Part shown: positions 3,721 through 36,465 of the stretch, piece after piece | Layout of the letters: the number at the start of each line of letters is the position of its first letter | Position numbering within the stretch: position 1 is the stretch's first letter | Assembly: GCA_020056635.1 (NCBI GenBank) | Contig: JAGVHI010000016.1 | Location: forward strand, 4,702 to 68,701 | Length of the DNA stretch: 64,000 nt | Source: an archaeon | GTDB lineage: Archaea > Micrarchaeota > Micrarchaeia > Anstonellales > Anstonellaceae | Direction of reading: 5' to 3' | The notes under the pieces: model-generated | Seen by the model: only the letters and a program-made list of their open reading frames with translations | Databases searched by the model: none | Told to the model about the DNA's origin: nothing | Made by a program: the position numbers and the translations under genes

Positions 3721-3723
3721 ACC

Positions 3724-18422: not shown

Positions 18423-18442
18423 AAACTAGCGGAGATGATGGC

Positions 18443-19069: not shown

Positions 19070-19228
19070 GGAATATTTTAACGTTCATTCTAATGTTCCT
19101 CAAGCGCCTTTAGGCTTTTCATTCTCGCTTCTCTAAAACCTCTTATGGGAATTCATTTTTAAAGCGCGCAAGTTCAAGTGGTGCAAAGCCCAATAGCGCA
19201 GGCGCGCGAAGGGAAAACTCAATAGCAG

Positions 19229-19756
19229 GTGATTCGATTGGCAAAAGGTTTGGGCATTTACGGGTTTGCTGCAAAAAGCATCGCAATATTCATTTTCGTG
19301 ATGCTGGTTTCAATGCTGCTTTCGGGCTGCGCTTCGCAGGAACAGCAGAACACGGGCGGCGAGTTGATTAAGGAAAACAAGACTGGCACAGTGGTGACCG
19401 AGAACAAGACTGGCTATGAAAAGACAAACGAATCAATAGCGCTTGCGGTAGCTGACGGCACCTATATTGAGAACGTCACTTACCCATATCACGTCGGCCT
19501 GCCAACCGAAGCCAACGAGACAATAGAAGTTAAAGTCACTGTCGAGGGTGATGTGATAACCGACGTATCAATAACAGCGATGGGCACTCCACACCAATAC
19601 TCCGCCAAGCTCATACTGGGTTTGAATGCAGCCCTCCCCGACCTAGTGGTCGGGAAGAAGATAACCGAGCTTAACATACCGAAAAATGTAGCAGGAAGCT
19701 CGCTCACAACTGCGGCATTCAAGGGCTATTTGGAAAACCTGGTGGAAACCTATTAG
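19229..19756 (+). CDS. FMN-binding-domain lipoprotein (candidate ApbE substrate)
   Basis: GTG start. Signal peptide plus lipobox VSMLLSGCAS. The C-terminal VAGSSLTTAAFKGYL resembles the FMN_bind flavinylation motif (S/T-G-A-T/S). It sits immediately upstream of apbE. Confidence 0.6.
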   Translation: MIRLAKGLGIYGFAAKSIAIFIFVMLVSMLLSGCASQEQQNTGGELIKENKTGTVVTENKTGYEKTNESIALAVADGTYIENVTYPYHVGLPTEANETIEVKVTVEGDVITDVSITAMGTPHQYSAKLILGLNAALPDLVVGKKITELNIPKNVAGSSLTTAAFKGYLENLVETY

Positions 19757-19764
19757 GCGCTAAA

Positions 19765-20661
19765 ATGGAGACAGTTGCGAGGACCGAGGAGCTGCTTGGC
19801 TCGGCAATCGAAATCAAGCTTCCCAGGCAGCATTCTTCCTTTTTCCCCATTTGTTTCGAAGAAATGAAGCGGATTGAGGATGCCTACTCCCGTTTCCTTC
19901 CTGATTCCAAACTCTCGAAACTGAATAAGACGCTCGGCACCTGGCAGCATGTTTCCGAAGAATTCATCTTTCTCCTTTCAAAGGCTGAGGAATTCAAGGC
20001 GAAAACAGGCGGTAATTTTGACATAACGCTAAAGTCTGCGCTTGACGCAATGGGCTATGACAAGGATTATTCATTCAAGCAAAAACCCGAGGCAAAGCCC
20101 GGAATTCTTGCAAGCATGAGAGGCGCGCTTTCGGGCGCAATACAAATCAACCGGAACGAGAAAAAAATCCTGCTAAATAGGGAAATCGATTTCGGCGGTT
20201 TCGGAAAGGGTTACGCCTCGGACCGTGTAGCTGAAGTGCTCGAGCGCAAGGGCGTTTCCCACTATTACATTAACGCAGGCGGTGACATGCTTGCAAAAAG
20301 CGCGAAAGGCGAGAAGGATTGGGAAATACTTCTCGAACACCCTGATAACCCTGAAATTGCAATTGGGAAAATCAATCTGAACGGAAAAGCAATCGCAGGC
20401 TCCGCCCCAAACAGGCGGAAATGGGGCGATTCGCACCACCTGATAAACGCGAAAACGGGCAAGCCTGCGCAGGGCACAAAGGCAATATTTGTTATCGCAA
20501 GCACAGGGATTGAAGCGGACGCATGCGCAACCGCGCTTTTCACTGCTGGTTTCGAGCATGGCATTTCTCTTTCGAAAAAAATGCCAGTTGAAATCCTTTC
20601 AATCTCAAGCCAGAACAAAATGTACCAAAGCCCTGGGTTCGGGGCGGAACTGTTCGGATGA
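19765..20661 (+). CDS. apbE: FAD:protein FMN transferase ApbE
   Basis: 298 aa. Motifs are MKRIEDAYSRFLPDSKLSKLN, IDFGGFGKGYASD, YYINAGGDM, GSAPNRRKW, HHLINAKTGKP and ADACATALF. Confidence 0.9.
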   Translation: METVARTEELLGSAIEIKLPRQHSSFFPICFEEMKRIEDAYSRFLPDSKLSKLNKTLGTWQHVSEEFIFLLSKAEEFKAKTGGNFDITLKSALDAMGYDKDYSFKQKPEAKPGILASMRGALSGAIQINRNEKKILLNREIDFGGFGKGYASDRVAEVLERKGVSHYYINAGGDMLAKSAKGEKDWEILLEHPDNPEIAIGKINLNGKAIAGSAPNRRKWGDSHHLINAKTGKPAQGTKAIFVIASTGIEADACATALFTAGFEHGISLSKKMPVEILSISSQNKMYQSPGFGAELFG

Positions 20662-21501
20662 TTAGTCCCCTGCCCCCACGAGCAGCTTAATCAGCAATGG
20701 CACAAGCGCAAGCAGCCCAATGCTTGCAAGGAAATAATGCGAAGGGATTTTCCGAGCAATTTTTGTAAGCACATCCATTGTTACGAACGAAGCAACTGCC
20801 GCAATCACAATTCCCACCGCAATCACTTCAATTGAAAATCCCTCAAACCCTTCCACAAAATAAAATGCAACAAACGCAGCCGCAACCATGGGCGCACTCA
20901 TCATAAAGCTTAGCCTCACCGCTTTTTGCGGCTCAATCCCCTGCAAAAGGAGCGAGCACTGGGTTATCCCGCTCCTGCTTATCCCAGGGATAACTGCCAG
21001 CCCCTGCGCAAACCCGGTTATCAATGCAGTTGAAATTGAAATTTTCGCATTTTGCTCAATCGCCTTCTTGGCTATTACAGTTATTGCGGCCATTACAAAC
21101 AGGAGCACTCCCACTGCAGCAAGCAGCCATTCCCCGGAAAGTTCGGTGAATACTTTGCGAACGATAAAATATGCCGGCAGTGCGACAATTGCGGTTGCAA
21201 CTATCGATATCACAAGAAACAGATGCTCCTTTTTTATTTCATCAGCTTTCTCGAATGAGGCCAATTCAGCGGGCTTAGTGACTGCTGCAACCACTGCCCC
21301 AATATACTCATTCCGGTACTTAAAAATCGCAGCAATGAAATCGCCGCAATGCAAAATAAGTGCGAATGCAAGGCATTCCTTGAAAGGGAGCGAAAAGAAT
21401 GCGCTTCCCGCAAGTATCACCTGTGTTTTCGAGCTCACCGGAATCCATGCGGTAATCCCCTGGATTATTGCAAGCACAATGGCCTGGAATATGTCAATCA
21501 T
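20662..21501 (-). CDS. uppP: Undecaprenyl-diphosphate phosphatase (BacA/UppP family)
   Basis: 279 aa, polytopic. Motifs are AIIQGITAWIPVSSKTQ and PGISRSGITQ. Confidence 0.85.
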   Translation of the reverse strand: MIDIFQAIVLAIIQGITAWIPVSSKTQVILAGSAFFSLPFKECLAFALILHCGDFIAAIFKYRNEYIGAVVAAVTKPAELASFEKADEIKKEHLFLVISIVATAIVALPAYFIVRKVFTELSGEWLLAAVGVLLFVMAAITVIAKKAIEQNAKISISTALITGFAQGLAVIPGISRSGITQCSLLLQGIEPQKAVRLSFMMSAPMVAAAFVAFYFVEGFEGFSIEVIAVGIVIAAVASFVTMDVLTKIARKIPSHYFLASIGLLALVPLLIKLLVGAGD

Positions 21502-21547
21502 GCTAGCGATGGGAAGAAGAAAAAATAAAAAGAGGGGCTAGCAGCAC

Positions 21548-24500
21548 TCACGAGTGCTGCTGCGAATAGGTGCACTCGAGCGGATAATTAGCCCCGGAAT
21601 GGACGCACACCCTTATTGCCCCTGCCCAGGCGTAAGTGCCCTCGCTAGTCCTGCTCCCGACATGCGCGCAGTAGGACCCGTCTGGCAGGTTGCCTTCCAC
21701 ATAGCTTGTCTGGCCAAGCGGAAGGATTGTTACCGGCGCATTCCCGAAGCTGCAGCTGACTGGCCTCTGCCGCGGGTCAACCACGTCCCTGCGAATCGAG
21801 AGTATGCTTCCACCCCCTCCGCCGCCCGGGCTTACCAAATTCTGGATGTTGCTTTTCACCCCAGAGTCGGAAACAGTCTTCGCTATGTCGGTTGTGCCGC
21901 CTGCAATAACCGGGCCTGATTCAATGTTCGCCTGATTGGCGATGCTGCTCTCGATTGCGGAATCGGAAACAAGATCCCCTTGCCCAACAGGCGAGTGCGC
22001 CACCTGCACAACGTAGTTCTCAAGGAACGGCGAGTAATCCGGCTCCACCCAACTCATTGCAACCGAGTGCGAGCCCTGTGCGCTGGTCGCGCCGAATCTG
22101 TACGGCACCACGACCCTAGTGTAATACCTTCCGGTCCTCTCAAAATTCTGCCTTTGGGTGGGCCACAGCCTATTTAGCGGCGAATCGAATGCATTCGTGC
22201 TCCATGCATAGAGCGACTGATATGTCGGGTTTCCTGTTTCATACCTCTGCGAACCGCCCGACCCGCTCACTATGTCCAGCATCCCGTCGCCGTCAATGTC
22301 CGCGACCACCTTTCCCTGTGACCCCAGCGCATCAAGCTCAACGTACTTTGCAGGCATCGCATCTGTCCCGTTCATGCTTTTTGCGCGCAATGCTCCGAAG
22401 TAAGTTCCGGACACGTTCTCCACATCCTCGTACAATATGTCCGGCTCGCCATCCCAGTTCACATCCCCAATCACAGGGCCAAGCCTGTCATCCCAGCCAA
22501 GTGCGCTGTCCCACTGCCCAATAACCGCACCAGTGCTGTTCAGCACCCTAATCCCATGCGCGGTGCCGGTCACGCTCGCAATTATCTCAAGCCCACCTAC
22601 ACTGTCAAGGTTTGCAACTGCCGGAGTTTCCGGCATCTGCCCCAAAAGCGCGGTCCAGAGCAGAGTTCCGTTGCCCCGATACGCAAGCAGCCCGTCCCTC
22701 GTCGGAATCAGCAGCTCATCCCTGTTGTCATAGTTGATATCCGCACTTGTTGCGCTCGCCCTTGCAGGGGATGCGAAAGCCACTGGCCATCCAGGAACTG
22801 CAGTGCCATTCGCATTGAAAGCAAATGCCTTCCCACCTGGCACATTGCAATTCTCCCAGTCCCCAGCATAGAATATCTCAAGGTCCGAGTCCGAATCCAA
22901 ATCTGCGACTATCGGGCTCTGCTGCACCCCTTCGCGCGGGAAGCAGTCGGGCACGCTCTGCGGCCAGCCGGGCCTTATCTGCCCGCTCAAGTTTGTTACA
23001 TAAATCAGTTTCGTATGCGATATCTGTGTCGGCCCTGGCACAATATACACGAGCTCCTTCTGCCCATCGTGCTCAAGGTCAGCTGACATCGCATACGCGC
23101 CAAACTGCCCTGCCCGCCCGGCATTTTGTATCTCATTTTCCCAAACAGCCTGCCCTAAAAGCGATTGCGCCACAGTCCTGTACGCCTCGCTTTCGCTTAC
23201 CCCTCCTTTTGCGTAAATCGCATCCATTATCCCATTGCTCCCGATATCCGAAACAAGCAGCGAGAGCCGATTCAGGTTCGGAAGCGAATCCGGTGCGGAA
23301 ATAACAGTGCTTTCTATTGCGCCGTCCGCCCCAACCACATATACTGCGCTTGCGGAATTGTCCGGGCTCCTGCTTGCAAAAATTATTTCTTTCCCTTCAT
23401 CCGCATCGACATTTTTGATTACCGGAATCGGGTAATCGTGGCTTGTGCTTGGGATTTTCACAGGGAACCCTTCTCGAAGCTCCCTGCCCATGCGCACTGT
23501 TGCGAACTCCTCGCCCAGTTCCTGCTCCCCGCCGCTTCCAAACACCGCAATCCGCATCTTATAGAAGCCGCTCTGCGTATCGGCTGGCAGCGAGAAATTC
23601 GCAAGCCTTCCATTCTGTACAGGCAGGTTGCCATCCCGTTCAAGCGCAATCCCGTCAGCGCTCCAATCCTCTGTCCCAACAGGTGCGTACTCGATTTCAT
23701 AATTTCCGCCCCCGTGCGACCAAATGCACCCGTCAACAGAAAGGCCTTCCCTGTACACATCCCCTCCTTTTGGAGAAGATATTCTTAGCTCTACACTCTC
23801 CTGCGCTCCCATGTAATTCCCGCTTCGCACAGGGTCGTGGTGGTATTCAGGCCATTGCATTGAGGATTCCGGGGTTCCAAGCTCCCAAACGTACACTCCC
23901 CCGTCGCCCTCTTCCCCCGTCCAGCCATAATAAGCGCCATCATCCCCAGTCGTGCCAACCATCTCAAGCATTCCATCATTGTCTATATCGGCTATTACTG
24001 GAGCGGAGCGCATCCCCCTCGGAAGCCGCATCCTCCAGATCGCGTTTTGCGAGTCATTTGCCCTGTATGCGCCCACCCCTGAGAGGTAGCTGAATGATGC
24101 CCCGCATCCGCCTCCTTCGGCAGTTATCAAATCATCCTGCCCATCTCCGCTCACATCCGCCGACACGACAGAGAAGTCCTGCCCGCACCTTGTAGGCACG
24201 CTGCCGATCGTAGTCCCGTTCTCATCTATTATCCTTGCGAAAGATTCGCTGTTCGAATTCGATGCGAGCTCGACGCTTCCGTCATCGTTCAAATCGGAGA
24301 GCATAAGGTACTTCGGAAGTTCGGTCGGCACATTCGTCCAGCCCGGAAGCGGGTTCCCCTGTGCATCGAACCTATAGATGTTATAGAAGCTTGCAATCGC
24401 CAGATCGGGCAGGCAATCCCCGTCAAAGTCATTGATTACCGGAGCCGCCATCCATCCTGCCCTCTCATCGATTGTCCATGCGTTTGAAACGCTTCCATCA

Positions 24501-26899
24501 GCTTCGAGTATTTCCACCCCCGTCTGCAAATTGTTGTCATCCATCACCACATACGCAATCTCCAGCTGCCCGTCGGAATCAAAATCCCCGGCTGCCGCTG
24601 TTGTGAATGCAGCGCCCACTGCGGGCCACTGCCCCATCTGCCTTGGCCAGCCAGACCTCACCTCGCCTGTGTGGTTGAGCACATACAGGTTCTGGCCTCC
24701 GGGAACCATCAGTTCCTTGTACCCATCCCCATCAAGGTCGACCGCTGTCGGGGAGCCAAGCAGGTTCCCATTCGTGCCCCAATGCTCATAATCGCCCGGG
24801 AGCTCGAAAGGCCATCCTTCCTTCTCAGTCCCATCCGGATTGAACACATAGACTTTCATGGTGCCCCTTGCGATAAGCTCTGGGGTGCAGTCCAAATCGA
24901 GGTCCGAAATGAGCAATGGCGAATTGGCTGCCCAATCCCACCCTGGCTCGGGCCAAACTCCCTCATCAAATGAAGCCGGCCAACCCGGCATCAAATTCCC
25001 GTCCGAATCAAGCAAATAGAAATACCCGTTCTTCGCGCTTAAGAATATCTCGCTCATCCCATCATTGTTCACATCCCCGACTGCAGGGGTGGAATATATG
25101 CTCGAGCCTGTGAAGAAAGGCCATCCCTGCTTCTGGTTCATTGTGAAATAGAACGCCTTCTGCTCAAAATTCCCTGCGTCCGACCTCACCACCAGCCTGA
25201 GTGCGTGCCATCCATCGCTCAGCGTTCCAATGCCCCACGTTCCCAGAATTCCGTTCTCCACGCTCGTGCCTTCCGCAATCACGGTCCAACTGCCCGGATA
25301 ATACCCCTCCCCGTAATAGAGAGAGTAATTGGCTCCCCCTATTGCGCTCCCGATTACCTCAACAGTCTGCGTGCCTGAAGAAATCGGCAGTATCACGCCG
25401 GATTCAGGCGAATCAATGCTTGCAACAAGGTTTGGCATCAAGCTCACGCGCACTGCTCCGCTCACATTCACCCGCCCTGCTCCAATATAGCAGTCCGGGA
25501 AATAGCATCCAGCAGGAATTGCGGTTTGCTTGAGTATCTGCTCCACCTGTGCAGGATTGAAGCTCTGGTTATGCGATATTATCAGCCCTGCGGCCCCCGC
25601 GACATACGGGGTTGCCATCGAGGTCCCCCTAAGCTCGCGGTAGCCGGATGGGCTCCCAAGCGGGCCAAAAATCGGCACAGTGCTCAATATTCCAGTTCCC
25701 TCAGGATGGCCTCCTGGCGCAGCCATGTCAGTCCAATACCCGTAAGTGGAATAATACGCCTTCGCATCATTCAAGTCAGTAGCAGTGACTGCAATCACAT
25801 TGTCATATGCCCCAGGATAATTCCTCTCCCTCATTCCAGAGTTTCCTGCAGCCGCAACAAGCACAACCCCCATCCCATGCGCGTACTCGATTGCATCCTG
25901 CTCCATCCCAGAATGCGGGCCTCCAAAGCTCATGCTTATCACGCGCACTCCATTGTCCGCTGCATAGTGTATCGATGCCGAAATATCATCATGCTCAAGT
26001 ATCCCGTACGCATAGCCCCCGTAATAAACCCCAAACCCGTTCCGAACTGGCATTATCCTGCAGTTGTGGCATACGCCGGCTACTCCTATGCTGTTGTTTG
26101 TTGCCGCGCCTGCAATTCCTGCGCAGTGCGTCCCGTGCCCGAAATAATCGCTTGGCATATCATCGGGTTGCGTATAATCCTCCTCGGGCGCAAGCGAGAA
26201 CCCCATTGCCTCGTACGCCGCAGTGTCAATATCCACAAAATCGTATCCTGTCCCATCCGGGCACCCTCCTGTGCAGTCCGCAAGCATGTTTCCCGCCAAA
26301 TCCTCGTGCGAGTAATCCACTCCGGTATCGGCTATTGCTATCACAACCGAGCCATTCCCCAGCTCAACGTCCCACCCTGCCTCCGCGTTCGAGTGCTGGT
26401 GTGACCACTGCTGAGGATAAAGCGGGTCATTTGGGACAAATGAAGTCCTCGCAAGGTAATTGGGCTCTGCATACTCCACATCAGGGAGCTTTGACACTTC
26501 GCGCGCCAACTCTTCCATATCAAGCACATAAGGCAGCCTGTACTCATATATCCTATCAAGCCCGATCTGTTTTGCAAGCTCGTCATCAGGCCTTATATTG
26601 AACACCCTCCTCGGGGCGATGCTTGACCCATCTACCGGTGGCGAATCAAGGCTCTTCTCCGATATCTGGGCGTTCGCAGCATCAGCAACTTGGGGGTCAA
26701 TCGGACTTCCGCTATATGTTTTCACAATCAGCCCGCCTGGCGCATATTCCGGGAACCTTGGCGGGGCTTGAAGAAAATTCGAATAAGTGATATTCGTTTC
26801 ATTGGAAAACCAAACCCCGCTTTCCTGCGCAAGGCAGAATTGCAGCAAAGCCAATATCGTTATCAATGCAACCAATTTCACATTTTTCATTCCAACCAA
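21548..26899 (-). CDS. Giant secreted subtilisin-like (S8) serine protease fused to FG-GAP/VCBS-type beta-propeller repeats
   Basis: 1783 aa. Signal peptide MVGMKNVKLVALITILALLQFCLAQE. Catalytic triad motifs are IADTGVD (D191), HGTHCAG (H255) and GTSMATP (S427). Many DxDxDG-type repeats are present (DVNNDGMSE, DLDGDGYKE, DFDGDC, DIDNDGMLE, DIDGDGMLD). Confidence 0.9.
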   Translation of the reverse strand: MVGMKNVKLVALITILALLQFCLAQESGVWFSNETNITYSNFLQAPPRFPEYAPGGLIVKTYSGSPIDPQVADAANAQISEKSLDSPPVDGSSIAPRRVFNIRPDDELAKQIGLDRIYEYRLPYVLDMEELAREVSKLPDVEYAEPNYLARTSFVPNDPLYPQQWSHQHSNAEAGWDVELGNGSVVIAIADTGVDYSHEDLAGNMLADCTGGCPDGTGYDFVDIDTAAYEAMGFSLAPEEDYTQPDDMPSDYFGHGTHCAGIAGAATNNSIGVAGVCHNCRIMPVRNGFGVYYGGYAYGILEHDDISASIHYAADNGVRVISMSFGGPHSGMEQDAIEYAHGMGVVLVAAAGNSGMRERNYPGAYDNVIAVTATDLNDAKAYYSTYGYWTDMAAPGGHPEGTGILSTVPIFGPLGSPSGYRELRGTSMATPYVAGAAGLIISHNQSFNPAQVEQILKQTAIPAGCYFPDCYIGAGRVNVSGAVRVSLMPNLVASIDSPESGVILPISSGTQTVEVIGSAIGGANYSLYYGEGYYPGSWTVIAEGTSVENGILGTWGIGTLSDGWHALRLVVRSDAGNFEQKAFYFTMNQKQGWPFFTGSSIYSTPAVGDVNNDGMSEIFLSAKNGYFYLLDSDGNLMPGWPASFDEGVWPEPGWDWAANSPLLISDLDLDCTPELIARGTMKVYVFNPDGTEKEGWPFELPGDYEHWGTNGNLLGSPTAVDLDGDGYKELMVPGGQNLYVLNHTGEVRSGWPRQMGQWPAVGAAFTTAAAGDFDSDGQLEIAYVVMDDNNLQTGVEILEADGSVSNAWTIDERAGWMAAPVINDFDGDCLPDLAIASFYNIYRFDAQGNPLPGWTNVPTELPKYLMLSDLNDDGSVELASNSNSESFARIIDENGTTIGSVPTRCGQDFSVVSADVSGDGQDDLITAEGGGCGASFSYLSGVGAYRANDSQNAIWRMRLPRGMRSAPVIADIDNDGMLEMVGTTGDDGAYYGWTGEEGDGGVYVWELGTPESSMQWPEYHHDPVRSGNYMGAQESVELRISSPKGGDVYREGLSVDGCIWSHGGGNYEIEYAPVGTEDWSADGIALERDGNLPVQNGRLANFSLPADTQSGFYKMRIAVFGSGGEQELGEEFATVRMGRELREGFPVKIPSTSHDYPIPVIKNVDADEGKEIIFASRSPDNSASAVYVVGADGAIESTVISAPDSLPNLNRLSLLVSDIGSNGIMDAIYAKGGVSESEAYRTVAQSLLGQAVWENEIQNAGRAGQFGAYAMSADLEHDGQKELVYIVPGPTQISHTKLIYVTNLSGQIRPGWPQSVPDCFPREGVQQSPIVADLDSDSDLEIFYAGDWENCNVPGGKAFAFNANGTAVPGWPVAFASPARASATSADINYDNRDELLIPTRDGLLAYRGNGTLLWTALLGQMPETPAVANLDSVGGLEIIASVTGTAHGIRVLNSTGAVIGQWDSALGWDDRLGPVIGDVNWDGEPDILYEDVENVSGTYFGALRAKSMNGTDAMPAKYVELDALGSQGKVVADIDGDGMLDIVSGSGGSQRYETGNPTYQSLYAWSTNAFDSPLNRLWPTQRQNFERTGRYYTRVVVPYRFGATSAQGSHSVAMSWVEPDYSPFLENYVVQVAHSPVGQGDLVSDSAIESSIANQANIESGPVIAGGTTDIAKTVSDSGVKSNIQNLVSPGGGGGGSILSIRRDVVDPRQRPVSCSFGNAPVTILPLGQTSYVEGNLPDGSYCAHVGSRTSEGTYAWAGAIRVCVHSGANYPLECTYSQQHS

Positions 26900-26909
26900 C
26901 CTCCGATTA

Positions 26910-28004
26910 TTATTTTACAAGTGTCATCTTTTTTGTTCGTGATATTCCATCAGCTTCGAATCTGTACAAATAAGTCCCGCTCGGAAGCCCGTCTGTTTTG
27001 AAAACTGTGCTATATCTCCCGGCAGTCTTCGTCCCATCCACGAGCGTTGCAACCCGCCTTCCAGTCACATCATAAACGCGAATCTTGACAAAGGCGCGCT
27101 TTGGAATCTCGTATTCAATAGTGGTCGTAGAATTGAACGGGTTCGGGTAATTCTGCTTAAGCTCTATTCCCGAAGGCAGCGCAAATGGGATCCTCCCAAC
27201 CGGCAGCCTTGCGGTCAATTCATTTGCCTGCAGCGTATCATGCACAAGAGTGCTCCAAGAGTATCTCCAAGGCTGCACACCCACTGCTTCCAATGCCGCC
27301 GAATCAATCAGGGAAAACGCCCAAGTGTTCCTGACTGCAACCAGCTCGCTCCCATTTGTGAATACTGCGTTCACTGGCATTCCCGCAATTGTCGTATCGA
27401 GGTTCACTGGCGGAAACCCGCTGGATGCCATGATTGAAATGAAATTCTCAAAGTTCCCGCACGGCGAAGGCATTGCCCAGCGCTGGCACGTGCTGTCCGC
27501 AATCCTCGCAGCCTCTGCCGAATCGCCAAGCGCTTCATCGAAAACTATGAATACGCCATAGCCCCTTGCAAGACCCACCCTTCTCTCCGCATCAGTGAAC
27601 GGTCCATCTTTCATTATCGCTTTGAGCGTGTCCCCGCACGTAGGATTATCTGGGTTATTGCCAGGCCATATCACCGCGCGCGCCATGAACGAAGGGTCAG
27701 GCCACACCCCATCAATCTCAACATGCTGGTAAACCCATATTGTGTCCTGGCCGTGCTCAAGGGCATAAATGGTCTGCTGCACATGCTGCTCCGAAGCAAA
27801 TGCAGAATGCAACTTGTCCACGAGCGGAACCAGCAGCATAAATGCCCCACCCGCAGCAAGCTTTCCAATGCCGCGCAATCCAGGCCCGTTCCTGAAGAAT
27901 TCGGAAATCCTACCTGGCATTTTCCTTTCAAATGCCCTTGCTTGCGCTGGCGCATTCGGGTTCTGGAAACTGTACGTTATCCTTTCCGAACTCATGTCCC
28001 TCAT
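26910..28004 (-). CDS. Membrane-anchored/secreted protein ending in a T9SS type-A (Por) C-terminal sorting-domain-like / FlgD-Ig-like module
   Basis: 364 aa with an N-terminal hydrophobic anchor, KLAAGGAFMLLVPLV. The last 84 aa are ELKQNYPNPFNSTTTIEYEIPKRAFVKIRVYDVTGRRVATLV...GTYLYRFEADGISRTKKMTLVK, ending exactly at the stop codon. The start overlaps the upstream stop by 4 nt. Confidence 0.8.
   Translation of the reverse strand: MRDMSSERITYSFQNPNAPAQARAFERKMPGRISEFFRNGPGLRGIGKLAAGGAFMLLVPLVDKLHSAFASEQHVQQTIYALEHGQDTIWVYQHVEIDGVWPDPSFMARAVIWPGNNPDNPTCGDTLKAIMKDGPFTDAERRVGLARGYGVFIVFDEALGDSAEAARIADSTCQRWAMPSPCGNFENFISIMASSGFPPVNLDTTIAGMPVNAVFTNGSELVAVRNTWAFSLIDSAALEAVGVQPWRYSWSTLVHDTLQANELTARLPVGRIPFALPSGIELKQNYPNPFNSTTTIEYEIPKRAFVKIRVYDVTGRRVATLVDGTKTAGRYSTVFKTDGLPSGTYLYRFEADGISRTKKMTLVK
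26913..27164 (-). other. T9SS-CTD-like terminal domain
   Basis: QNYPNPFN...VYD..GR.V..L.......G.Y...F......SG.Y.YR.......KKM.L.K pattern at the extreme C-terminus. Confidence 0.7.
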
Positions 28005-31000
28005 CCTTCTTCAGTAATTATGTTTCCAGCATCTGCAACAATTCCCTCTATCGCGTTGATTCCAACTTCAGTGCTGTTGTTGATGCTCACGCCAGGCCCA
28101 ATGGCCCCGATGGAATTCACTATTTGCGAGTTCCAGTCAATCCTTCTCCTATTCCCAATCCCCACTACATCTATTGGTGTAGCCGGGCAGTTTGCAATCC
28201 CGCCTATGCACACTCTCTTGGCAGCAGTCCAAGCATACCTTTGGTCCGGAGGCATTGCGAATGAATTCACGCTTGCCGCCCTCACATAGTGCCACCCGTT
28301 TGCAAGCCCGCCAATCACATAATTGCCAGGTGCAGGGACTTCCTGTATCGGGCTGTTTGCAAAATCCTGGCTCATGGATTCCTGCAATGCATATCCTGAA
28401 AGGAACATGTAATCGTCAGCCTCAACAAAGCTCACAGTAATCGAGTTCCCGGAAACAACGGCATTAAACCCATAAGGCGCGCTCATTCTTGTTATCTGCC
28501 TTCCAGTCCTCTCAAAATTCCTCCCTAACGTCGGCCAAACCCTGCTTCTCGGGCCTGCGTTTCCCCCAAGGCTCCATGCATAAACTGACTGGCGCGTTGC
28601 AACATCCTCGCCTGTTCCGTACCTGTTCGCCCCTTCACTTCCGCTCACAAGCTCCAGCATTCCATCCCCGTCAATATCTGCGATTGCTTTCCCATGCGAG
28701 CCAAGCACCGTCAATTCAACGTATTTTGGCGCAACAGCATCGTTGCCTTCAATGTCCCTTGCGCGCAGCATCCCGAACACTGTGCCCGAGACATTCTCAA
28801 CATCCTCGTGGATTATATCGAGCGACCCATCGCCATCCGCATCAGCAAGCACGGGCCCCATCCTGTCGTCCCATGCCAGGTTGGTGTCCCAGCTTCCGAC
28901 AAGCTGCCCCTGCTCATTTAACACTCTGATTCCGTGTTGTGTTCCAGTCACGCTCACCACTATTTCAAGCCCCCCATCAAAGTCCAAATCTGCAAGCGCG
29001 GGCGCCTCTGCCCACTGCCCTTCTAGTGCATGCCATATGAGTTCGCCGTTTGGGCGGTATGCATAAAGCCCGTTCCTAGTTGGAATTATGACTTCATCCT
29101 TCCCATCATCATCCAAATCAGCGCTTGCGGAACTTGCCCTTGCAGGCGAATCAAAGAGCACTGGCCACCCCGGAACCGGGCTTCCGTTTGGGTTGAATGC
29201 AACTGCTTTTCCTGAGGGCACATCACAATTGTCCCCTTCAGCCGCGTAAACCACCTCAAGGTCGGAATCCGCATCAAGGTTTGCGACTATCGGGCTTGGC
29301 TGCACCCCGTCGCGGGGCCCGCAATCAGCCGTTTCAGTTGGCCACCCGTTCCTGGTAACCCCTGCAAGGCTTTTCACATAAATGCTCCTCATGTGCTCTC
29401 CTGACGGGGCAACGAACACCAGCTCCTTCTGCCCGTTCCTGTCTATGTCTGAGAGCACCGTGAAAGTGCCGTATTGCTCAGCCCTGCCGCCATCAGGCAG
29501 GCTCTCCTGCCATCCCTGCTGCCCGGAGAGCGAATATGCTGATGTATAGTACGGAGTGCCTTCTGCATTCCCGCCTGATGAATAGACCGCATCCTGCACA
29601 CCGTCATTCCCGATGTCCGCGACCTGCAGAGAAAGCCGGTTTAAGTTCTGGTTCGTGTCAGGCTCGGATTCCACGATTGCTTCCAACTCCCCGTCTGCGC
29701 CTACAACATACACCACGCTTGCGGTATCAAGCTCATTTCTGCTTGCAAAAATAATCTCCTTTTCCGCATCTGCATCCACGTTCCTTATCATCGGAATCGG
29801 ATAATCCCTTGCAACGCTCGGAACCCTTGCAGGGAACCCCTGCGCAAGCCCGGTGTCAATCCGGACGGTTGCAATTTCCTGTGACAAAAGTTCGCGCCCA
29901 TCGTTAGCCACGACCCTTATCCTGAATTTGTAGAACTCGGGGGCAAATCCTGCCGGGGCATTGAAATCTGCAATATGCGTCCTGTTCGGGCCTGCGCTTG
30001 GCGCAATCTCCACCCCTTCAATGCTCCATTCTTCAGTGCCCACAGGAGCGTATTCCACAAACAATCCAAATCCTTGCGGAATATATGCGCTTCCATCAAC
30101 GCTCATCAAATCCCCATACACATCCCCTCCATAGGGGTCTCCGACAGAGAGCGCACCGCTTCCAACCATTGCAGGCGCGGCCCACGCATAGCTTCCATTC
30201 ATGCTCCTGCTCCCTGCCCGCGCATAATACGCTCCCTCGCCAACATTGGTGAACGTGTAGTCCCTTGTAGAAAGGGAAACATTCACATCTGCAACCATCT
30301 GCCCAAATCCCGAATCGTTCGCAAGCTGCACCGCATACCCTGCAAGAAGCGGGTAATTGTCTGCCTCAGCCCAGGAAACTGAAATATTCCCCTCCATAGT
30401 GCCCAGTGCATCAAATGAATATGGCGCCCCAAGCCTGCCAACATACCTGTTTGTCCTCCCCTCATCCCTATGCTGCGTAGGCCACGCATTATTTATTTGC
30501 GATGCTTGCGCCCCAAGATGCCAAACGTAAGCAGTCTGCCTCGGGACAGTGCTATCCGAGTGGTTTGTGCCTATGCGTATATTGTCAAACCATGACAACC
30601 TCTGCCTGCCCTCGCCAGTGCCCACAAGCTCAAGCGTGCCGTCATTATTCATATCCGCAAGGTTCAGCCCTTCCAATATGCTTGACTCCACGTATTTCGG
30701 GAACCCTGCAAGCTCCTGCCCTGCGAGATTCCTTGCGTGTATGGTGTTGAACGGAACTCCGCTCACAATTTCCCGTCCCTCATAAACCAAATCAAGCTGC
30801 CCGTTCCCGTCAATGTCCCCAAAAAGCGGCTCATATACCGAGAGGCCGCTTCTCCAGCTCGAGCCTGCGGCATAAGCATGCTGGTTTTGCACTGGCCAGC
30901 CCGGATGCTCAGTGCCGTCCGCATAAAGAAGGTGCACAAGCCCCGAATTATCCTCAACTGCGATATCCGGCGCCCCATCCCAATCAACATCCGCAACTGC

Positions 31001-34000
31001 TGGGCTGGAAACAAATGTTGAGCCATTCAGCACTGACATGGCAACTGTGCCCGAAGAGCCAAATGCCCTAAGCGCATTGCCCCCTGCAACCAATAGCTCG
31101 TCAATCCCGTCCCCGCCCAAATCTACCGCAACAGGGGTTGAAATAAGCGGATAGCCGCTTGTGTTGTAATATACTGGCCAGCCCGGCATCACGCTCCCAT
31201 CTAGCTCGAACATGTATGCCTTCCCAAGCGGCATGCTGCAGTTTTCAGCATAGAAGCATTCTGACATGCCAGTATAAGCAATCTCAAGCTGCGGGTCAGA
31301 ATCGAAATTCCCCACCATCGGGCTTGGCTGGCTTGGCTGCCCGCTTACCATATGTGTCACATTCTGCGGCCAGCCAGACATCACGCTTCCGTTTGCCCAA
31401 ACAACATAAATCGCGGCATTCAAATTCCCGGGCAGCACGAACACGAGCTCCTTTTCCCCATCGTGGTCCAGGTCTGCAAGAACCTGGTAATTGTTGAGCT
31501 GGTATTCCATCCTGTAATAATGGTACCACGCAGGCGGCTGCGTCTCATTCGAATATAAAGACCAAAACTCGCTTTCATCCTGCTGCTGCGCAAACACGCT
31601 GTGGTAATGCGCAGCCTTGTATTTTGCATAAGAATATTCGTTCTCCCCATCCAAGTCAAAATCATTCAAGTGCAGCGAGAGCCTGTTCACCTCCCCTTCT
31701 GCTTCCGGAGGGGAAATCACCAGACTTTCCGATACTCCGTCGCTGCCTATTGCATAAACCGCGCTCGTGCTCCTGTCAGGCAAATTTTCTACATATGCTA
31801 TTTCCTTCTGCCCATCCCCATCCACGTCCTTTAGCGTTGGCATTATGTAATACGAATCCAGCTCGTACTCATACGCTTCGCTCCGGTAGCTCCACCTATG
31901 GTCATAGCGCGGAACCGGAATTTCAATATACGCCGGATAATTCTGCGCAATCCCCCTGTCAATCCTCAATATTGCGAAAACCTGTTCAACCGAAGGCCCA
32001 CCCCCGTTCTGGTCGTACATCCCGAGCCTGAACTGGTAAAACCCGCTTTGCAATCCAGCCGGCGCATCAAACCTTGCAATCCTCCCATCCGCGCTCTGCA
32101 GCCCGCCATTCTCGAGCGTTATCCCTTCAGCGCTCCATCCACCTGTTCCGTTTGGCGCATACCACACTGTATATGTATAGTTCTCCGGAAGCAGCACAGT
32201 CCCGTTTATTTCAAGCGAATCGCGGTAAACATCCCCATTGAAAGGAGTGAGAACTGCCGGGTTATCCACTACGAACGTGAAATAATCAATCGTCTCCCGC
32301 CCGTTCCCGCTCACATTCAGCTTCACAAGATACAGCCCATTTTGCGGGAACAATGCGACCTTCTCAATCTGCGCAAATTGGAGCTGCGCAGGCATCCCTG
32401 CAGCCAGTTGCACGCTTCCCTGCTCATGGTATGCCCCCAGCCACGATTCCGGGTCTTCAAGAATCGGGCCGTCTTCCCTTGGATTCTGCCCCATGAACCC
32501 AACATCATAAGTGTAATTGTATTCGCCTGCAGCTTCATTCGCATACGCATTGAGATTCGCCTCAAACCGCACCGCCTGGCGGCTCTCGCTTTCTTTTCTC
32601 AGCTCAACAATGGCCGGCCTTGGCGAGCCTCCGGCCGCGAACGCATTTATCCTCCCATGCCCCTTGTCAAGCACGTTTGCTTGGAACCGAACCCCATCTA
32701 TGGATTTCGTGACATTCGCGTTTGCAGTGTTCCTTAGCGCATACTTGATTTCATCCGGGTTCCACTCAGGGTGCTGCTGCACAAGCAGCGCCGCCGCCCC
32801 TGCAGCCGCGGGCGTTGCCATCGAGGTTCCGCTGTAGCTTATGTGCCCCGGGAACCCATAGCAGCTCCTGTTCTCATGCCCTGTCCAGAAAGTCGAGCAT
32901 ACCATTGCGCCTATTGCAAGCACATCCGGCTTTACTGCTCCCCCTAGCACCGGGCCTCGGGAGCTGAATCCAGCAAGGGTTCCAAACTTGAACGAAGCCC
33001 CGACACCTATCGTTTTCCGCGATGCGGCCGGTGACGCGACATACCCGTACTGTGCATACGCGCCACCGCCACCATATCCGTAGTTATGGACAGCCGCAAC
33101 CGCGACCACCCCCACATTCACCATATTGTCCGATGAAAGCGACACTATGCTGTCCGGGTCATTGTCAAGCGCGCCTATGCTCATGGTTGCAATATCCACA
33201 TGGTCCTCCATATTAGAATCATTGTTCGGGTCAAGTATCCGCTCAAACGCATTCAGGATTGATATTTCAGGGCAGCTGTTTGCAGGCGCAGGCTCTATAT
33301 GGAAGTGGTCTAAATCGCACACTTTGTAATCATAAATAGTTGCGTCAGGCGCCATTCCCCTAAAAAGCGCCCCGCTTTCATTTGTGAAATTGGCGGCAAC
33401 AATTCCTGCCACATGTGTTCCATGCCCCCAATAGCTCGGCTGCGGAAGGTCATGGTCATAAACAAAATCATATGCCCACTCCACCCTGCATCCCGGCCCG
33501 ACACTCCCGTTTGCGGTGCACCCGGGGACCGCAAAGTCAGGGTGCGTCGCATCCACTCCAGTATCCACAACCCCGACCCGCACGCCAGCGCCAGTGTAGC
33601 CTCCTGCCCACATATCGACTGCCCCAAGCGTAACCGTGACGTTTGGCATCGCAGGCCAAGCATGCCCGAGCTCGTATATTTTTTTCACAAACGAAAGCTT
33701 CTCGATTTTTGCTTTCTCCGCAGGAGAAATCTCTTTCACCATTATCCCATTCTGCACAAGCACCAAATCGTATCTTTGCCTGCCCGAGAACCCTGGAACC
33801 GCATTTTCAATCTGGCTCAGGTAGCCGCTATGCGCAGCTTTTAGCCAGTTCGCATAGTTTTTAGCCTCGTCAAACTGCGAAGGCTGCGTAGGGAACGTGC
33901 CTATATGGACAGATGCAGGCGCTTCCATGAACTGGATCAGATACCCGCTTGGGCCGGCATAGACCGGAGTTGCATTCCAATAGGGCTGCCCTTCCTCCAA

Positions 34001-34084
34001 AAGCGGTGATTCCTGCGCAATGCAAACCGACGCTAAAAGCAGAAGCGCGAATGCGACAGTTTCAATATTTTTCATAAGAATCAA
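28001..34084 (-). CDS. Giant secreted subtilisin-like (S8) serine protease with two FG-GAP/VCBS propeller units (paralog of 21548..26899)
   Basis: 2027 aa. Signal peptide MILMKNIETVAFALLLLASVCIAQE. Catalytic motifs are VVDTGVD (D174), HGTHVAG (H221) and GTSMATP (S421). The C-terminal ~700 aa look more than half identical by eye to the 1783-aa protein. Confidence 0.9.
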   Translation of the reverse strand: MILMKNIETVAFALLLLASVCIAQESPLLEEGQPYWNATPVYAGPSGYLIQFMEAPASVHIGTFPTQPSQFDEAKNYANWLKAAHSGYLSQIENAVPGFSGRQRYDLVLVQNGIMVKEISPAEKAKIEKLSFVKKIYELGHAWPAMPNVTVTLGAVDMWAGGYTGAGVRVGVVDTGVDATHPDFAVPGCTANGSVGPGCRVEWAYDFVYDHDLPQPSYWGHGTHVAGIVAANFTNESGALFRGMAPDATIYDYKVCDLDHFHIEPAPANSCPEISILNAFERILDPNNDSNMEDHVDIATMSIGALDNDPDSIVSLSSDNMVNVGVVAVAAVHNYGYGGGGAYAQYGYVASPAASRKTIGVGASFKFGTLAGFSSRGPVLGGAVKPDVLAIGAMVCSTFWTGHENRSCYGFPGHISYSGTSMATPAAAGAAALLVQQHPEWNPDEIKYALRNTANANVTKSIDGVRFQANVLDKGHGRINAFAAGGSPRPAIVELRKESESRQAVRFEANLNAYANEAAGEYNYTYDVGFMGQNPREDGPILEDPESWLGAYHEQGSVQLAAGMPAQLQFAQIEKVALFPQNGLYLVKLNVSGNGRETIDYFTFVVDNPAVLTPFNGDVYRDSLEINGTVLLPENYTYTVWYAPNGTGGWSAEGITLENGGLQSADGRIARFDAPAGLQSGFYQFRLGMYDQNGGGPSVEQVFAILRIDRGIAQNYPAYIEIPVPRYDHRWSYRSEAYEYELDSYYIMPTLKDVDGDGQKEIAYVENLPDRSTSAVYAIGSDGVSESLVISPPEAEGEVNRLSLHLNDFDLDGENEYSYAKYKAAHYHSVFAQQQDESEFWSLYSNETQPPAWYHYYRMEYQLNNYQVLADLDHDGEKELVFVLPGNLNAAIYVVWANGSVMSGWPQNVTHMVSGQPSQPSPMVGNFDSDPQLEIAYTGMSECFYAENCSMPLGKAYMFELDGSVMPGWPVYYNTSGYPLISTPVAVDLGGDGIDELLVAGGNALRAFGSSGTVAMSVLNGSTFVSSPAVADVDWDGAPDIAVEDNSGLVHLLYADGTEHPGWPVQNQHAYAAGSSWRSGLSVYEPLFGDIDGNGQLDLVYEGREIVSGVPFNTIHARNLAGQELAGFPKYVESSILEGLNLADMNNDGTLELVGTGEGRQRLSWFDNIRIGTNHSDSTVPRQTAYVWHLGAQASQINNAWPTQHRDEGRTNRYVGRLGAPYSFDALGTMEGNISVSWAEADNYPLLAGYAVQLANDSGFGQMVADVNVSLSTRDYTFTNVGEGAYYARAGSRSMNGSYAWAAPAMVGSGALSVGDPYGGDVYGDLMSVDGSAYIPQGFGLFVEYAPVGTEEWSIEGVEIAPSAGPNRTHIADFNAPAGFAPEFYKFRIRVVANDGRELLSQEIATVRIDTGLAQGFPARVPSVARDYPIPMIRNVDADAEKEIIFASRNELDTASVVYVVGADGELEAIVESEPDTNQNLNRLSLQVADIGNDGVQDAVYSSGGNAEGTPYYTSAYSLSGQQGWQESLPDGGRAEQYGTFTVLSDIDRNGQKELVFVAPSGEHMRSIYVKSLAGVTRNGWPTETADCGPRDGVQPSPIVANLDADSDLEVVYAAEGDNCDVPSGKAVAFNPNGSPVPGWPVLFDSPARASSASADLDDDGKDEVIIPTRNGLYAYRPNGELIWHALEGQWAEAPALADLDFDGGLEIVVSVTGTQHGIRVLNEQGQLVGSWDTNLAWDDRMGPVLADADGDGSLDIIHEDVENVSGTVFGMLRARDIEGNDAVAPKYVELTVLGSHGKAIADIDGDGMLELVSGSEGANRYGTGEDVATRQSVYAWSLGGNAGPRSRVWPTLGRNFERTGRQITRMSAPYGFNAVVSGNSITVSFVEADDYMFLSGYALQESMSQDFANSPIQEVPAPGNYVIGGLANGWHYVRAASVNSFAMPPDQRYAWTAAKRVCIGGIANCPATPIDVVGIGNRRRIDWNSQIVNSIGAIGPGVSINNSTEVGINAIEGIVADAGNIITEEG

Positions 34085-34374
34085 TCTCCCCTAGCGCGCT
34101 CTAGGCATGCGCATATAATCCGGAAAACAGGATGCAGAAAAAGCACGGGAAAAGTTTCTCTTGGCTAACCAATCGGGACACGCACATTGCATTCGGAACA
34201 AATGCATTAGGCAACCACTCTAACTTCCTTTCTCTCCCGACGAATATTTGTTGTAGCTAGTATATAAACGTTTTGTTGCTTGAAAATGCAGAAAATCGGC
34301 TCCACTATGCCCATTGCTGAAAAAAGAAAAATGGAAAAAGCGAAAATAAGCAAAACGGGAAAAAATCAGCCCAT

Positions 34375-35118
34375 TTACCCGTACATGGGGCCCAGCGACT
34401 GCGCAGATTCCGTCTTCTTGTAATGCTGCTGCGCCATTTTCGCCTTTCCCATCATGTCTCGCATTTTGTTCTCAATAAGCTTGGACTCGCGCTCAAGCTC
34501 GCTGGTGTCAATCTCAATCCCAAGCATCCCGTGCACGATTTCAAGCACCATGCTCGCAGCTTTCGGGTCTATGTACTCCTCGTGCGATTCCGCAAGCAAG
34601 GATGCGACCGGGAATTCCAGTATTGCGCCGCGCGCAAGCAGCACCCCTGTGACTCCAGTGGTCGCGCCCTCGTCAATGAGCTTTATCGCCTTGTACTTGG
34701 AGAGCGTGTCCCTCATCTTCTGCGTGCTTGCAATCGCGTACACAGTGTCCTGCTCCCCCTTTATCGTGATTCCCCCAAGCGAGATGATTTGCGATACCTT
34801 GTTCTTTTCCGCGAATTGGAAAAGTTCATCCGCAAGCTCGTGCACAGCGTCCATCGGTATTACAAACTCGGATATGAACACAATGAGATTGTGCTTCTCT
34901 GAGCAATAGATTCTTGCAGGGTGGAGCGGGATTTTCCCGTGCACTGCCGCAAGCGGTGGGAATTTCTCTGAGGTGATATACCCCATGGGCTTCATTTTCA
35001 GCTTCTCCACTATGTAGCTTGCGGAAATCGTGCCAACAAGCCCGAGCCCTGGGAACCCCTCAATCAAAGTCGGGTTCTTTAGCTTAAACTTTCCAAGCTG
35101 GTGCAGTTCTAGTGCCAT
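34375..35118 (-). CDS. PAC2-family proteasome assembly chaperone
   Basis: LIEGFPGLGLVGTISASYIVEKL...PPLAAVHGKIPLHPARIY. The likely start is MALELHQ at 35118 (the ORF track extends to 35208). Confidence 0.75.
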   Translation of the reverse strand: MALELHQLGKFKLKNPTLIEGFPGLGLVGTISASYIVEKLKMKPMGYITSEKFPPLAAVHGKIPLHPARIYCSEKHNLIVFISEFVIPMDAVHELADELFQFAEKNKVSQIISLGGITIKGEQDTVYAIASTQKMRDTLSKYKAIKLIDEGATTGVTGVLLARGAILEFPVASLLAESHEEYIDPKAASMVLEIVHGMLGIEIDTSELERESKLIENKMRDMMGKAKMAQQHYKKTESAQSLGPMYG

Positions 35119-35173
35119 ATTCCCGGTTATTCCTTCCCAATCTTTTAAAATACTCCCCTGCGCTTCTTCACGC

Positions 35174-36439
35174 ATGGAAAAACTGCTAGCGCTCGCCCGC
35201 AGGCACAACCTCGAGGCCGAATTCTACCACGAGCGCTCGCACGGGATAACGCTTGGCACAGCAGGCAGCGCTGTGAAATTCAAGTCAAGCGAATTTTGCG
35301 AGGGCTATTCTGTGCGCGTGCTCCACCAAGGGCGCATTGGCTTTGCGTATTTTGAGCGCTTGGCCGATGCGGAAAAAACAACCTTGCTTGCAAAAAAGCT
35401 CTCCTCATTTTCCCCCAAATCCGGCTTCTCATTTGCCCAAAAGCAAAAATATGCAAAAATCATACCGTATGACAAAAGGGTGGCGGCAATCACCCCAGAG
35501 GATGCGGTATCGCACGCAAAGGAAATGCTCAAATCCGCCTCTTCAATAAAAGGCGCAATCCCAACTGAAGGCAGCATCTCATTCTCAACTGGCGGGTTCG
35601 AGCTTGCAAGCTCAAGCGGCCTTTTTTCCAGCTCCCGCTCCACCGGGCTCTCAATCTGGTGCGGCGCCAATTTCAAAGGGAGCACCGGGGGCGCAAGCTT
35701 CTCGCACTATAAATTCGAGGACAAATTCGCTGCGGTCGGAAAGGAAGCGGCTCAGGTTGCAAAGCGCATGCACACTGCGAAAAAAATCCCCCAGAAAAAG
35801 ATGACTGTGATTTTCGGGCGCGAGGCGCTTCACTCGCTTTTGCACGGGATACTGCTCCCCTCGCTGAATGGAGACTGGGCTAGGCGGAAAATTTCAAAGT
35901 TCACCGGGTTAGAGGGCAAGCAGGTTGCAAGCGAATGCTTTACGCTATCTGATGACCCGTTTGCGGACGCGGCAGGGCTCTCCCCATTCGACGGGGAAGG
36001 GGTTGCGGCAAAGCGCATCCCACTGATTGAAAAGGGAATTTTCCGCTCTTTCCTATTCGACAGGCTCACTGCCTCGCTTGCGCAGGTTGATGCGCAGGGC
36101 TCATGCGCAAGGGGAAGCTACCTTGGAAGCCCCTCAATCTCCCCAAGCAACCTCTCAATCGCACCAGGCACTATCCGCAACCTGGAATCCGAATTCCCAA
36201 ATTCCCTAATTGTTCGCGATTTCCACGGCGAGCACACCGCAAACAAGGTGACTGGGGACTTTTCAGTTTCGCTTGATGCGGCCTTCCTTGCGGACGGCAA
36301 ATCGGTGCGCGGCAACCTCCTTTCCTCCAACATATTCGAAATGCTAAAAAACATAGCAGGGGCAGAAAAGGGTGCTTGCGCCTATGCCGATATGGTTGCT
36401 CCCAGGGTTGCATTCGGGGATATCCTTATAGTCGGATAG
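35174..36439 (+). CDS. TldD/PmbA-family metalloprotease
   Basis: Starts [19 protein letters not shown]-terminal motifs are [26 protein letters not shown] and [13 protein letters not shown]. Confidence 0.8.
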
Positions 36440-36465
36440 GCTGCAAGCAAGACAGGGAGGATAAA

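Follow-up and report, generated by a model that had tools for sequence, protein, structure and literature searches.

A Micrarchaeote gene cluster for two large predicted secreted subtilases with FG-GAP propellers and a protein with a T9SS-type domain

A 64,000-nucleotide stretch of contig JAGVHI010000016.1 (assembly GCA_020056635.1; Micrarchaeota, Anstonellaceae), referred to below as the window, carries on its minus strand three open reading frames (ORFs) arranged head to tail in the order A, C and B. Sequence comparison supports the view that A and B encode secreted, pre-pro-type S8 subtilases in which the catalytic domain is followed by a long region of FG-GAP propellers. The two are old paralogs, and they are large, duplicated members of a known, uncharacterised family that joins a protease to a propeller and is widespread among uncultured bacteria and archaea. 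With moderate confidence, A and B are interpreted as Ca2+-stabilised proteases whose propellers target a polymeric substrate, and which would serve a reduced Micrarchaeote in the scavenging of peptides and possibly in remodelling the surface of a neighbour. The cluster measures 12.5 kb, or 19.6% of the window. The ORF coordinates and the share of about one fifth given in the original prediction, which had been made from the sequence alone, are borne out.

Signal peptides and protease domains of A and B

Gene A (28001-34075, minus strand) specifies a secreted subtilase of 2024 residues with two propeller modules, read from an ATG at 34075, and gene B (21548-26890, minus strand) a secreted subtilase of 1780 residues, also with two propellers, read from an ATG at 26890. 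Somewhat longer ORFs, of 2027 and 1783 codons, open with TTG at 34084 and 26899, respectively. In each of them the ATG lies three codons inside and is preceded by GGAG (A) or GGAGG (B), and this inner codon, rather than the TTG, is the likely start of translation. Public gene calls on the 107,179-bp contig begin both genes at the same inner codons (2024 and 1780 residues).

Each of the two proteins has one hydrophobic segment, a Sec-type signal peptide, which in A comprises residues 1-20 (34016-34075, minus strand; MKNIETVAFALLLLASVCIA|QES). The signal peptides follow a common pattern, MKN...C[IL]AQES, but had been called near-identical, a description that does not survive alignment (41% identity over 29 residues). 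Neither protein has a transmembrane segment, a PGF-CTERM or PEF-CTERM tail or another recognisable cell-surface anchor, and their earlier designation as surface proteins is in consequence an assumption. The isoelectric points (pI) of A and B are 4.3-4.45, compared with 6-9.5 for the housekeeping proteins of the window. N-glycosylation sequons number 29 in A against 12.6 expected, a roughly two-fold excess that was reached in none of 2000 shuffles; such enrichment is expected of an archaeal extracellular protein.

The S8 catalytic domain occupies residues ~162-454 of A (32714-33592, minus strand) and, in a thermitase-like form, residues ~181-457 of B (25520-26350, minus strand). Matches to Peptidase_S8 (Pfam PF00082; MEROPS S8) reach 149 bits in A and 179.3 bits in B, with a cut-off of 21.8. 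The catalytic Asp, His and Ser stand in canonical order in both proteins, accompanied by the oxyanion-hole Asn (motifs DTG, HGTH, GN and GTSMA), and the complete triads that had been predicted are indeed present: D171, H218 and S418 with N331 in A, and D188, H252 and S424 with N350 in B. The nearest solved structure is the Tk-SP-type protease 3afg for the domain of A (E 2e-31) and thermitase, 1thm, for that of B (E 9e-45). The pro-region of B gives sub-threshold matches to a Fervidolysin_NPro-like family (17.7 bits; cut-off 21) and to Peptidase_S8_N (17.6 bits; cut-off 30.5), and homologs that align over this region do pass the Pfam propeptide cut-offs. Inhibitor_I9, which the original prediction had listed for annotation, was not detected by Pfam in A or B.

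Propeller modules

Behind the protease, propellers were delimited by DxDxDG Ca2+-binding loops repeating every ~50-60 residues. The long repeat regions that had been predicted were confirmed by Pfam, with FG-GAP_3 (PF13517) at 107.4 bits in A and 110.8 bits in B (cut-off 26.9), and FG-GAP (PF01839) at 29.7 and 45.8 bits (cut-off 22.1). A relaxed scan located 31 Ca loops in four groups (8+8 in A, 8+7 in B), and a thirty-second, NVDADEGKEI at about residue 1160 of B, was spotted by eye. Together these loops define four predicted eight-bladed propellers with 32 blades.

Pairwise comparison defined a module, M, of ~690 residues, in which an Ig-like sandwich, an eight-bladed propeller and an FN3-like sandwich follow one another, and which occurs twice in A and once in B. 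Module M1 of A spans residues 607-1300 (30176-32257, minus strand), with Ca loops at 750, 805, 868, 923, 985, 1029, 1087 and 1141, and module M2 spans residues 1291-1960 (28196-30205, minus strand), with blades at 1432-1800. The single module M of B comprises residues 1017-1780 (21551-23842, minus strand), and its FN3-like sandwich contains a low-complexity insertion of ~75 residues. This insertion (residues ~1655-1730; window 21700-21930, minus strand) is rich in Ser, Gly and Ile, includes GGGGGG and is absent from both modules of A. The propeller directly behind the protease of B (596-1030) is of another type than that of module M. An Ig-like domain (residues 480-595) and this first eight-bladed propeller (blades 606-968, end WPEYHHDPVRSG) make up a unit (23801-25453, minus strand) that is common to many homologs in one piece.

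An Ig-like sandwich thus precedes each of the four propellers, and an FN3-like sandwich stands behind three of them. The preceding sandwich is homologous to the Ig-like domain that separates the propeller from the protease in other members of the family, from which it follows that the duplicated unit is the Ig-like domain plus the propeller. The FN3-like sandwich gives no Pfam fn3 match, and none of the 148 homologs described below is related to it in sequence. An AlphaFold2 (AF2) model of M2 is all-beta (predicted local distance difference test, pLDDT, 63.5; predicted TM-score, pTM, 0.58) and places a seven-stranded sandwich on both sides of the propeller. The Ig-like and FN3-like units of the original prediction are to that extent seen as sandwiches, and their names are provisional labels taken from a model of medium confidence. 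In a Foldseek search with the M2 model the best PDB matches were eight-bladed propellers of FG-GAP type (PL11 YesW/YesX and Vibrio cholerae Bap1) and integrin alpha, with TM-scores of ~0.4; the best-matched propellers bind or cleave extracellular polymers.

The S8 domains of A and B are ~24% identical by BLAST; among the modules, identity is 53% between M2 of A and M of B and 33-34% between M1 and either of these. In the search with residues 1-1200 of B, A ranks only ~133rd among the matches, which indicates that A and B separated long ago. The proportion of synonymous differences (pS) between paralogous modules is 0.70-0.74, that is, synonymous sites are saturated, and the ratio of nonsynonymous to synonymous substitution (dN/dS) between modules is for this reason not interpretable; the comparison that had been suggested as a test of diversifying selection is uninformative.

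A widespread protease-propeller family

The extent of the family was gauged by a HMMER search with residues 1-1200 of B against 1.84 billion cluster representatives, which returned 16,752 matches at E <= 1e-30, a count in which every good S8 match is included. The best 148 representatives were inspected: S8 domains and propeller motifs (the GWP blade motif) occur together in ~120 of them, and at least 14 align with B from the pro-region through the first propeller (~110-1030) in one stretch, at 35-44% identity. The architecture had been presented as something special, and it proves very common. Tandem propellers are rare: two propeller-end motifs were found in only two of the 148. Pfam searches of seven sampled relatives gave S8 plus FG-GAP in all seven, with tails that vary (dockerin, He_PIG/Big_9, CARDB, beta-helix, Por_Secre_tail, PT-HINT), and 10 of the 148 end in the C-terminal domain (CTD) of the bacterial type IX secretion system (T9SS). 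Among these relatives, dockerin-like tails, T9SS CTDs and Ig domains are export or anchoring elements of a kind usual in extracellular enzymes. Named relatives are mostly bacterial, Chloroflexota included, and several have T9SS sorting domains or dockerin-like tails; the cluster entries of the ten top homologs read 'thermitase' twice and Chloroflexota once. Nothing in this distribution ties the family specifically to episymbiosis.

A profile of module M recovered distant relatives only, at <=33% identity, many of them again S8 plus FG-GAP proteins, with or without a T9SS CTD. They come from Marinimicrobia, Lentisphaeria, Acidimicrobiales, Deltaproteobacteria and KSB1, with one protein from Thermoplasmata. 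A scan of GTDB species representatives with A yielded two weak FG-GAP matches in metagenome-assembled genomes of Flavobacteriales (28-29% identity over 160 residues) and no close relative at the sensitivity of that scan, and a metagenome scan with the module alignment yielded no match. Literature searches for S8 plus FG-GAP in archaea or Micrarchaeota gave nothing pertinent; a 2008 survey of serine proteases gives the combination trypsin-FG-GAP and does not give subtilisin-FG-GAP.

Organisation of the cluster

Gene C (26910-28004, minus strand; 364 residues) lies between the two protease genes. The stop codon of A overlaps the ATG of C by 4 nt (ATGA), and 10 nt separate C from the TTG of B, as had been stated at the outset, or 19 nt when the distance is counted to B's ATG. 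The intergenic space inside the cluster is too short for a further promoter, and the genes lie as close together as those of a single transcription unit. In the spacer of 290 nt ahead of A, the upstream PAC2 gene ends in a T-rich stretch, which is followed by a TATA-box-like TTTATATA (34261-34268, minus strand; read by eye) 186 nt upstream of A's ATG, which is a candidate for the archaeal promoter of the three-gene cluster. At the other end, a hairpin with a 9-bp stem, GCAGCACTC-GT-GAGTGCTGC (21514-21560, minus strand; likewise read by eye), spans the stop codon of B and is followed by a T-rich run, and is a candidate terminator for the three genes. Neither an Rfam scan nor a tRNA scan of the window gave a match.

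Gene C and its T9SS-type domain

The product of gene C consists of a signal-like segment (residues ~46-68), an orphan middle domain (69-285) and a beta-sandwich like that of the T9SS type A sorting domain (286-360). The signal-like segment is moderately hydrophobic and ends in SAFA|SE. The CTD (residues 286-364, the last ~85 residues; 26913-27149, minus strand; motif KQNYPNPFNSTTTIEYEIP) scores 39.6 bits against Por_Secre_tail (PF18962, cut-off 27) and 42.8 bits against TIGR04183 (cut-off 23), and holds KQNYPNPF, with its NYPNPF motif. In a metagenome scan with C, in which the CTD alone was recovered, it is ~50% identical to bacterial CTDs in >589 loci. It is modelled confidently (pLDDT 72-88) as an Ig-like sandwich, and its fold matches the CTDs of mirolase and RemZ. 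The body of C (residues 66-285, ~220 residues) has no homolog at E <= 1e-3 in 5.8 billion proteins and folds poorly from its single sequence (pLDDT <50). The longest apparent metagenome match to C turned out to be a bacterial LVIVD-repeat protein with a like CTD, not a homolog of the body.

By these measures the domain is genuine, and a canonical bacterial sorting domain of T9SS type A is odd on an archaeal protein. Archaea lack an outer membrane that such a protein would have to cross, and no T9SS is known from them. No gene of the T9SS machinery (SprA/PorV/PorU and others) was found among the window ORFs scanned, and no report of T9SS CTDs in archaea was found in the searchable literature, which is weak negative evidence. 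The occurrence bears on the spread of sorting domains and on their role outside the secretion system.

Host genome and reliability of the assembly

The flanks of the cluster encode RtcB, PAC2, LonB, an RPA-like OB protein, NFACT, FEN1 and an A-type ATPase. FEN1 and AtpA have their best structure matches in Pyrococcus, and the nearest relatives of AtpA (77-86% identity), where named, are assigned to Candidatus Micrarchaeota, Micrarchaeia, Anstonellales, Burarchaeum, Gugararchaeum and Parvarchaeota. From these names it was concluded that the window derives from a DPANN Micrarchaeote, in keeping with the setting among episymbiotic small archaea in which the cluster had first been placed. In their codon usage, A, B and C correlate with the rest of the window (r 0.78-0.87) as closely as any housekeeping gene does, which argues that the cluster is neither a recent import nor a foreign insert. 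A salt-in halophile, which would favour an analogy with Nanohaloarchaeota, was rejected on the pI of the housekeeping proteins.

The locus is held by only one public run, a small one with inverted joints and a depth of 0-113x. From 22225 to 34158 its Logan contigs agree with the window throughout (100% identity, no indels). Logan unitigs join the cluster to both sides in window order: k-1 overlaps lead into the PAC2/TldD/LonB flank (34129-37055), and low-depth fragments with four short gaps lead from the 3' end of B to the first part of UppP (21379-21529). Contigs of the same run join opposite strands at 22225/30395, 34129-34158/37044, 45110/46227 and 48270/52580. Together with the depth range, these joints have the character of chimeras formed in multiple displacement amplification (MDA), and the run is therefore probably a single-cell or mini-metagenome amplification. 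Its DNA is probably the same as that behind the window assembly, so that the match is not an independent confirmation. Within that limit no run data contradict the ORFs, and the interruption of the reading frames that had been named as a ground for rejecting the prediction was not seen in the contigs over 22225-34158.

Proposed function and its alternatives

The preferred interpretation, that A and B are secreted proteases directed by their propellers to a polymeric substrate, would operate as follows. After export, each enzyme would cut off its own N-terminal pro-region, as other subtilases do. The propellers, acidic and loaded with Ca2+, would act as binding modules and keep the protease attached to a macromolecular target, for instance on particles, on protein or glycoprotein surfaces or on the envelopes of other cells, and the S8 domain would then cleave the target so held. 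A DPANN cell of reduced metabolism would most likely benefit through the scavenging of peptides and amino acids; remodelling of the surface layer of a neighbouring cell is also conceivable. The product of gene C would probably be a partner or tether for A and B, acting through its beta-sandwich CTD, a role that is purely conjectural. In favour of the interpretation as a whole stand the domain content and active-site residues, the signal peptide as sole hydrophobic segment of A and of B, their low pI, the sequon excess in A, the 32 Ca-loop blades, the polymer-binding or polymer-cleaving propellers matched by the M2 model, the tails seen in relatives, the codon usage, the tight packing with its promoter-like and terminator-like elements, and the affiliation with Micrarchaeota.

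Several observations weigh against this interpretation. The propeptide that a pre-pro-type protease should have is weakly matched in B and has no Pfam match at all in A. The structural model of M2, from which the propeller comparisons are drawn, is of medium quality (pLDDT 63.5, TM-scores ~0.4), and no characterised S8-FG-GAP member was found from which a propeller ligand might be taken. The single transcript proposed originally agrees with the packing of the genes, the TATA-like box and the terminator-like hairpin; the operon status itself is read from spacing, and among public runs no RNA run contains the locus. Finally, the 3' end of B stands on low-coverage MDA data: its last ~220 codons are covered by fragments at 3-7x only, with four short gaps (~20-60 nt each), one of which (21530-21559) spans the stop codon.

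Among the alternatives, the one that fares best, though we consider it improbable by comparison with substrate-directed proteolysis, is that the cluster serves an episymbiont for attaching to its host or for invading it. In that case A and B would be displayed on the cell surface of the Micrarchaeote, where C might retain them, their propellers would bind the host envelope and their proteases would open the S-layer or other surface proteins, in analogy to the extracellular part of the SPEARE proteins of Nanohaloarchaeota. The source is a DPANN Micrarchaeote, and cultivated members of that group are generally known to live attached to hosts (see also 10.1101/2023.02.24.529834). The proteins are very large, duplicated and diverged, taking up 12.5 kb together; propellers of like fold include adhesins (integrin alpha, Bap1), and A is enriched in sequons. 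Set against these features, A and B lack a transmembrane segment, PGF-CTERM or any other anchor, the S8-propeller architecture abounds in lineages without an episymbiotic lifestyle, and a serine protease is the sole SPEARE-defining feature present. Saturation of synonymous substitution (dS) in addition bars a test for diversifying selection.

It is much more doubtful that the sorting domain of C is kept under selection either to dock a surface complex with A and B, or as a mimic through which the cell would engage a bacterial partner at its T9SS or outer-membrane surface. Were the mimic reading true, the Micrarchaeote would use a borrowed bacterial sorting module and two propeller-proteases to attach to, or feed on, bacteria of the FCB type rather than archaea.

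There is a very slight chance that the propeller modules are polysaccharide lyases of PL11 type, making A and B bifunctional protease/lyases that degrade glycoprotein or pectin-like polymers. The best Foldseek matches are indeed the rhamnogalacturonan lyases YesX, YesW and 4cag (E ~1e-12), which are eight-bladed, bind Ca2+ and have an N-terminal beta domain. These matches come with 13-15% identity, TM-scores of ~0.4 and a model of medium confidence, no lyase family was matched in Pfam or NCBIfam, and the fold is also that of non-enzymatic binders (Bap1, integrins, BBSome subunits).

An artefact of chimeric MDA assembly, or a decaying and non-functional bacterial import, is suggested by the inverted joints and uneven depth of the sole run with the locus, by the bacterial-type sorting domain on C and by the mostly bacterial names among relatives of the propeller module, and is nonetheless highly unlikely, as decay would hardly leave two ORFs of 5.3 and 6.1 kb uninterrupted and their active sites intact, codon usage is that of the window (r 0.78-0.87), unitigs tie the cluster to both flanks in window order, and, with no relative closer than ~44% identity, any transfer must be old.

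The interest of A and B lies in the dependence of DPANN archaea on other cells or on scavenged building blocks, for the acquisition of which large exported proteins are the main candidates. From a Micrarchaeote, the cluster supplies two intact proteases that can be cloned and whose binding modules can be separated. For this family of S8, Ig-like domain and FG-GAP propeller, public data contain S8 and propeller relatives in the tens of thousands, and since no characterised member was found, a single propeller ligand, once defined, would annotate many genes. Current concepts would be changed only if a role in host contact were shown.

Other genes in the window

The gene for RtcB (9777-11204, minus strand) belongs to a 90%-identity cluster that includes a member of 947 residues, twice the normal length, from another NCBI contig; this relative may carry an intein or a fusion. 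On both sides of RtcB stand large paralogous ORFs (6911-9733 and 11291-14512, minus strand) of 940 and 1073 residues, 34% identical over their full length and of basic pI, for which no Pfam or PADLOC match and no signal peptide was found. At 96-5274 (plus strand) a HerA/FtsK-like ATPase, with weak PADLOC matches to mad8/HerA, is followed by tandem paralogs of 526 and 516 residues (39% identical) that have Cys-rich C-termini and no family match; this set could be a defence or DNA-translocation module. The region 16815-20661 holds a DIT1/PvcA-like gene (isocyanide/dityrosine-synthesis family), a cytochrome b5-domain protein, a ferric-reductase-like membrane protein, a lipoprotein-like ORF and ApbE, a redox set that is unusual for a reduced DPANN genome.

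Comparison with known systems

The SPEARE proteins of Nanohaloarchaeota combine laminin-G and other adhesion domains with a transmembrane segment close to the C-terminus; their most conserved part is a type III restriction-enzyme region in the cytoplasm (PMC6642349). What A and B share with them is a very large size, a DPANN source, an extracellular serine-protease region and domains of adhesion type. Unlike them, A and B have no C-terminal transmembrane segment, restriction-endonuclease region or laminin-G domain, and they are 2-4 times shorter; Pfam gave no Laminin_G match at E <= 0.01, and neither Pfam nor NCBIfam gave a nuclease or helicase family. By domain content A and B are not SPEARE members, a difference of architecture that the original prediction had rightly drawn.

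The cell-envelope proteinases of Gram-positive bacteria (lactocepin PrtP, C5a peptidase) are also set apart. No PA, fn3 or Gram_pos_anchor match was found in A or B by Pfam, and the NCBIfam model for LPXTG-anchored peptidases scores 31 and 15 bits against a cut-off of 1400, so that A and B, as far as family models can tell, fail the defining features of this group. Tk-SP of Thermococcus kodakarensis (3afg) and thermitase (1thm) have homologous S8 catalytic domains, but measure 280-660 residues with at most one small C-terminal domain, whereas A and B have more than 1300 residues of propeller modules behind the protease.

The propellers resemble those of PL11 YesW/YesX, Bap1 and the integrin alpha head in predicted fold, blade number and Ca2+-binding DxDxDG loops. 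Identity to these proteins is 9-15%, integrin propellers are seven-bladed, and none of them is fused to a protease. The CTD of C, in turn, agrees with that of T9SS type A cargo of Bacteroidota/FCB (TIGR04183, PF18962) in passing both cut-offs, in the NYPNPF motif and in the Ig-like sandwich, and differs in that it is placed on a separate protein of 364 residues with an orphan body, in an archaeal genome.

The closest likeness is to the S8-FG-GAP proteins of the wider family. Relatives named by JGI as 'thermitase', 'Subtilase family/FG-GAP-like repeat' or 'subtilase family protein/VCBS repeat protein' join, as do A and B, an S8 family serine peptidase to FG-GAP (VCBS) repeats. Module M, with its Ig-like domain, propeller and FN3-like sandwich, has no relative above 33% identity, A and B have two propellers each, and the dockerin-like, T9SS CTD, Ig or HINT tails of the relatives are absent from both. 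What unites the family is a thermitase-like S8 domain, an Ig-like sandwich, blades of the form ...dG..pGWP... and a propeller end of the form WPxxxHDxxxTG.

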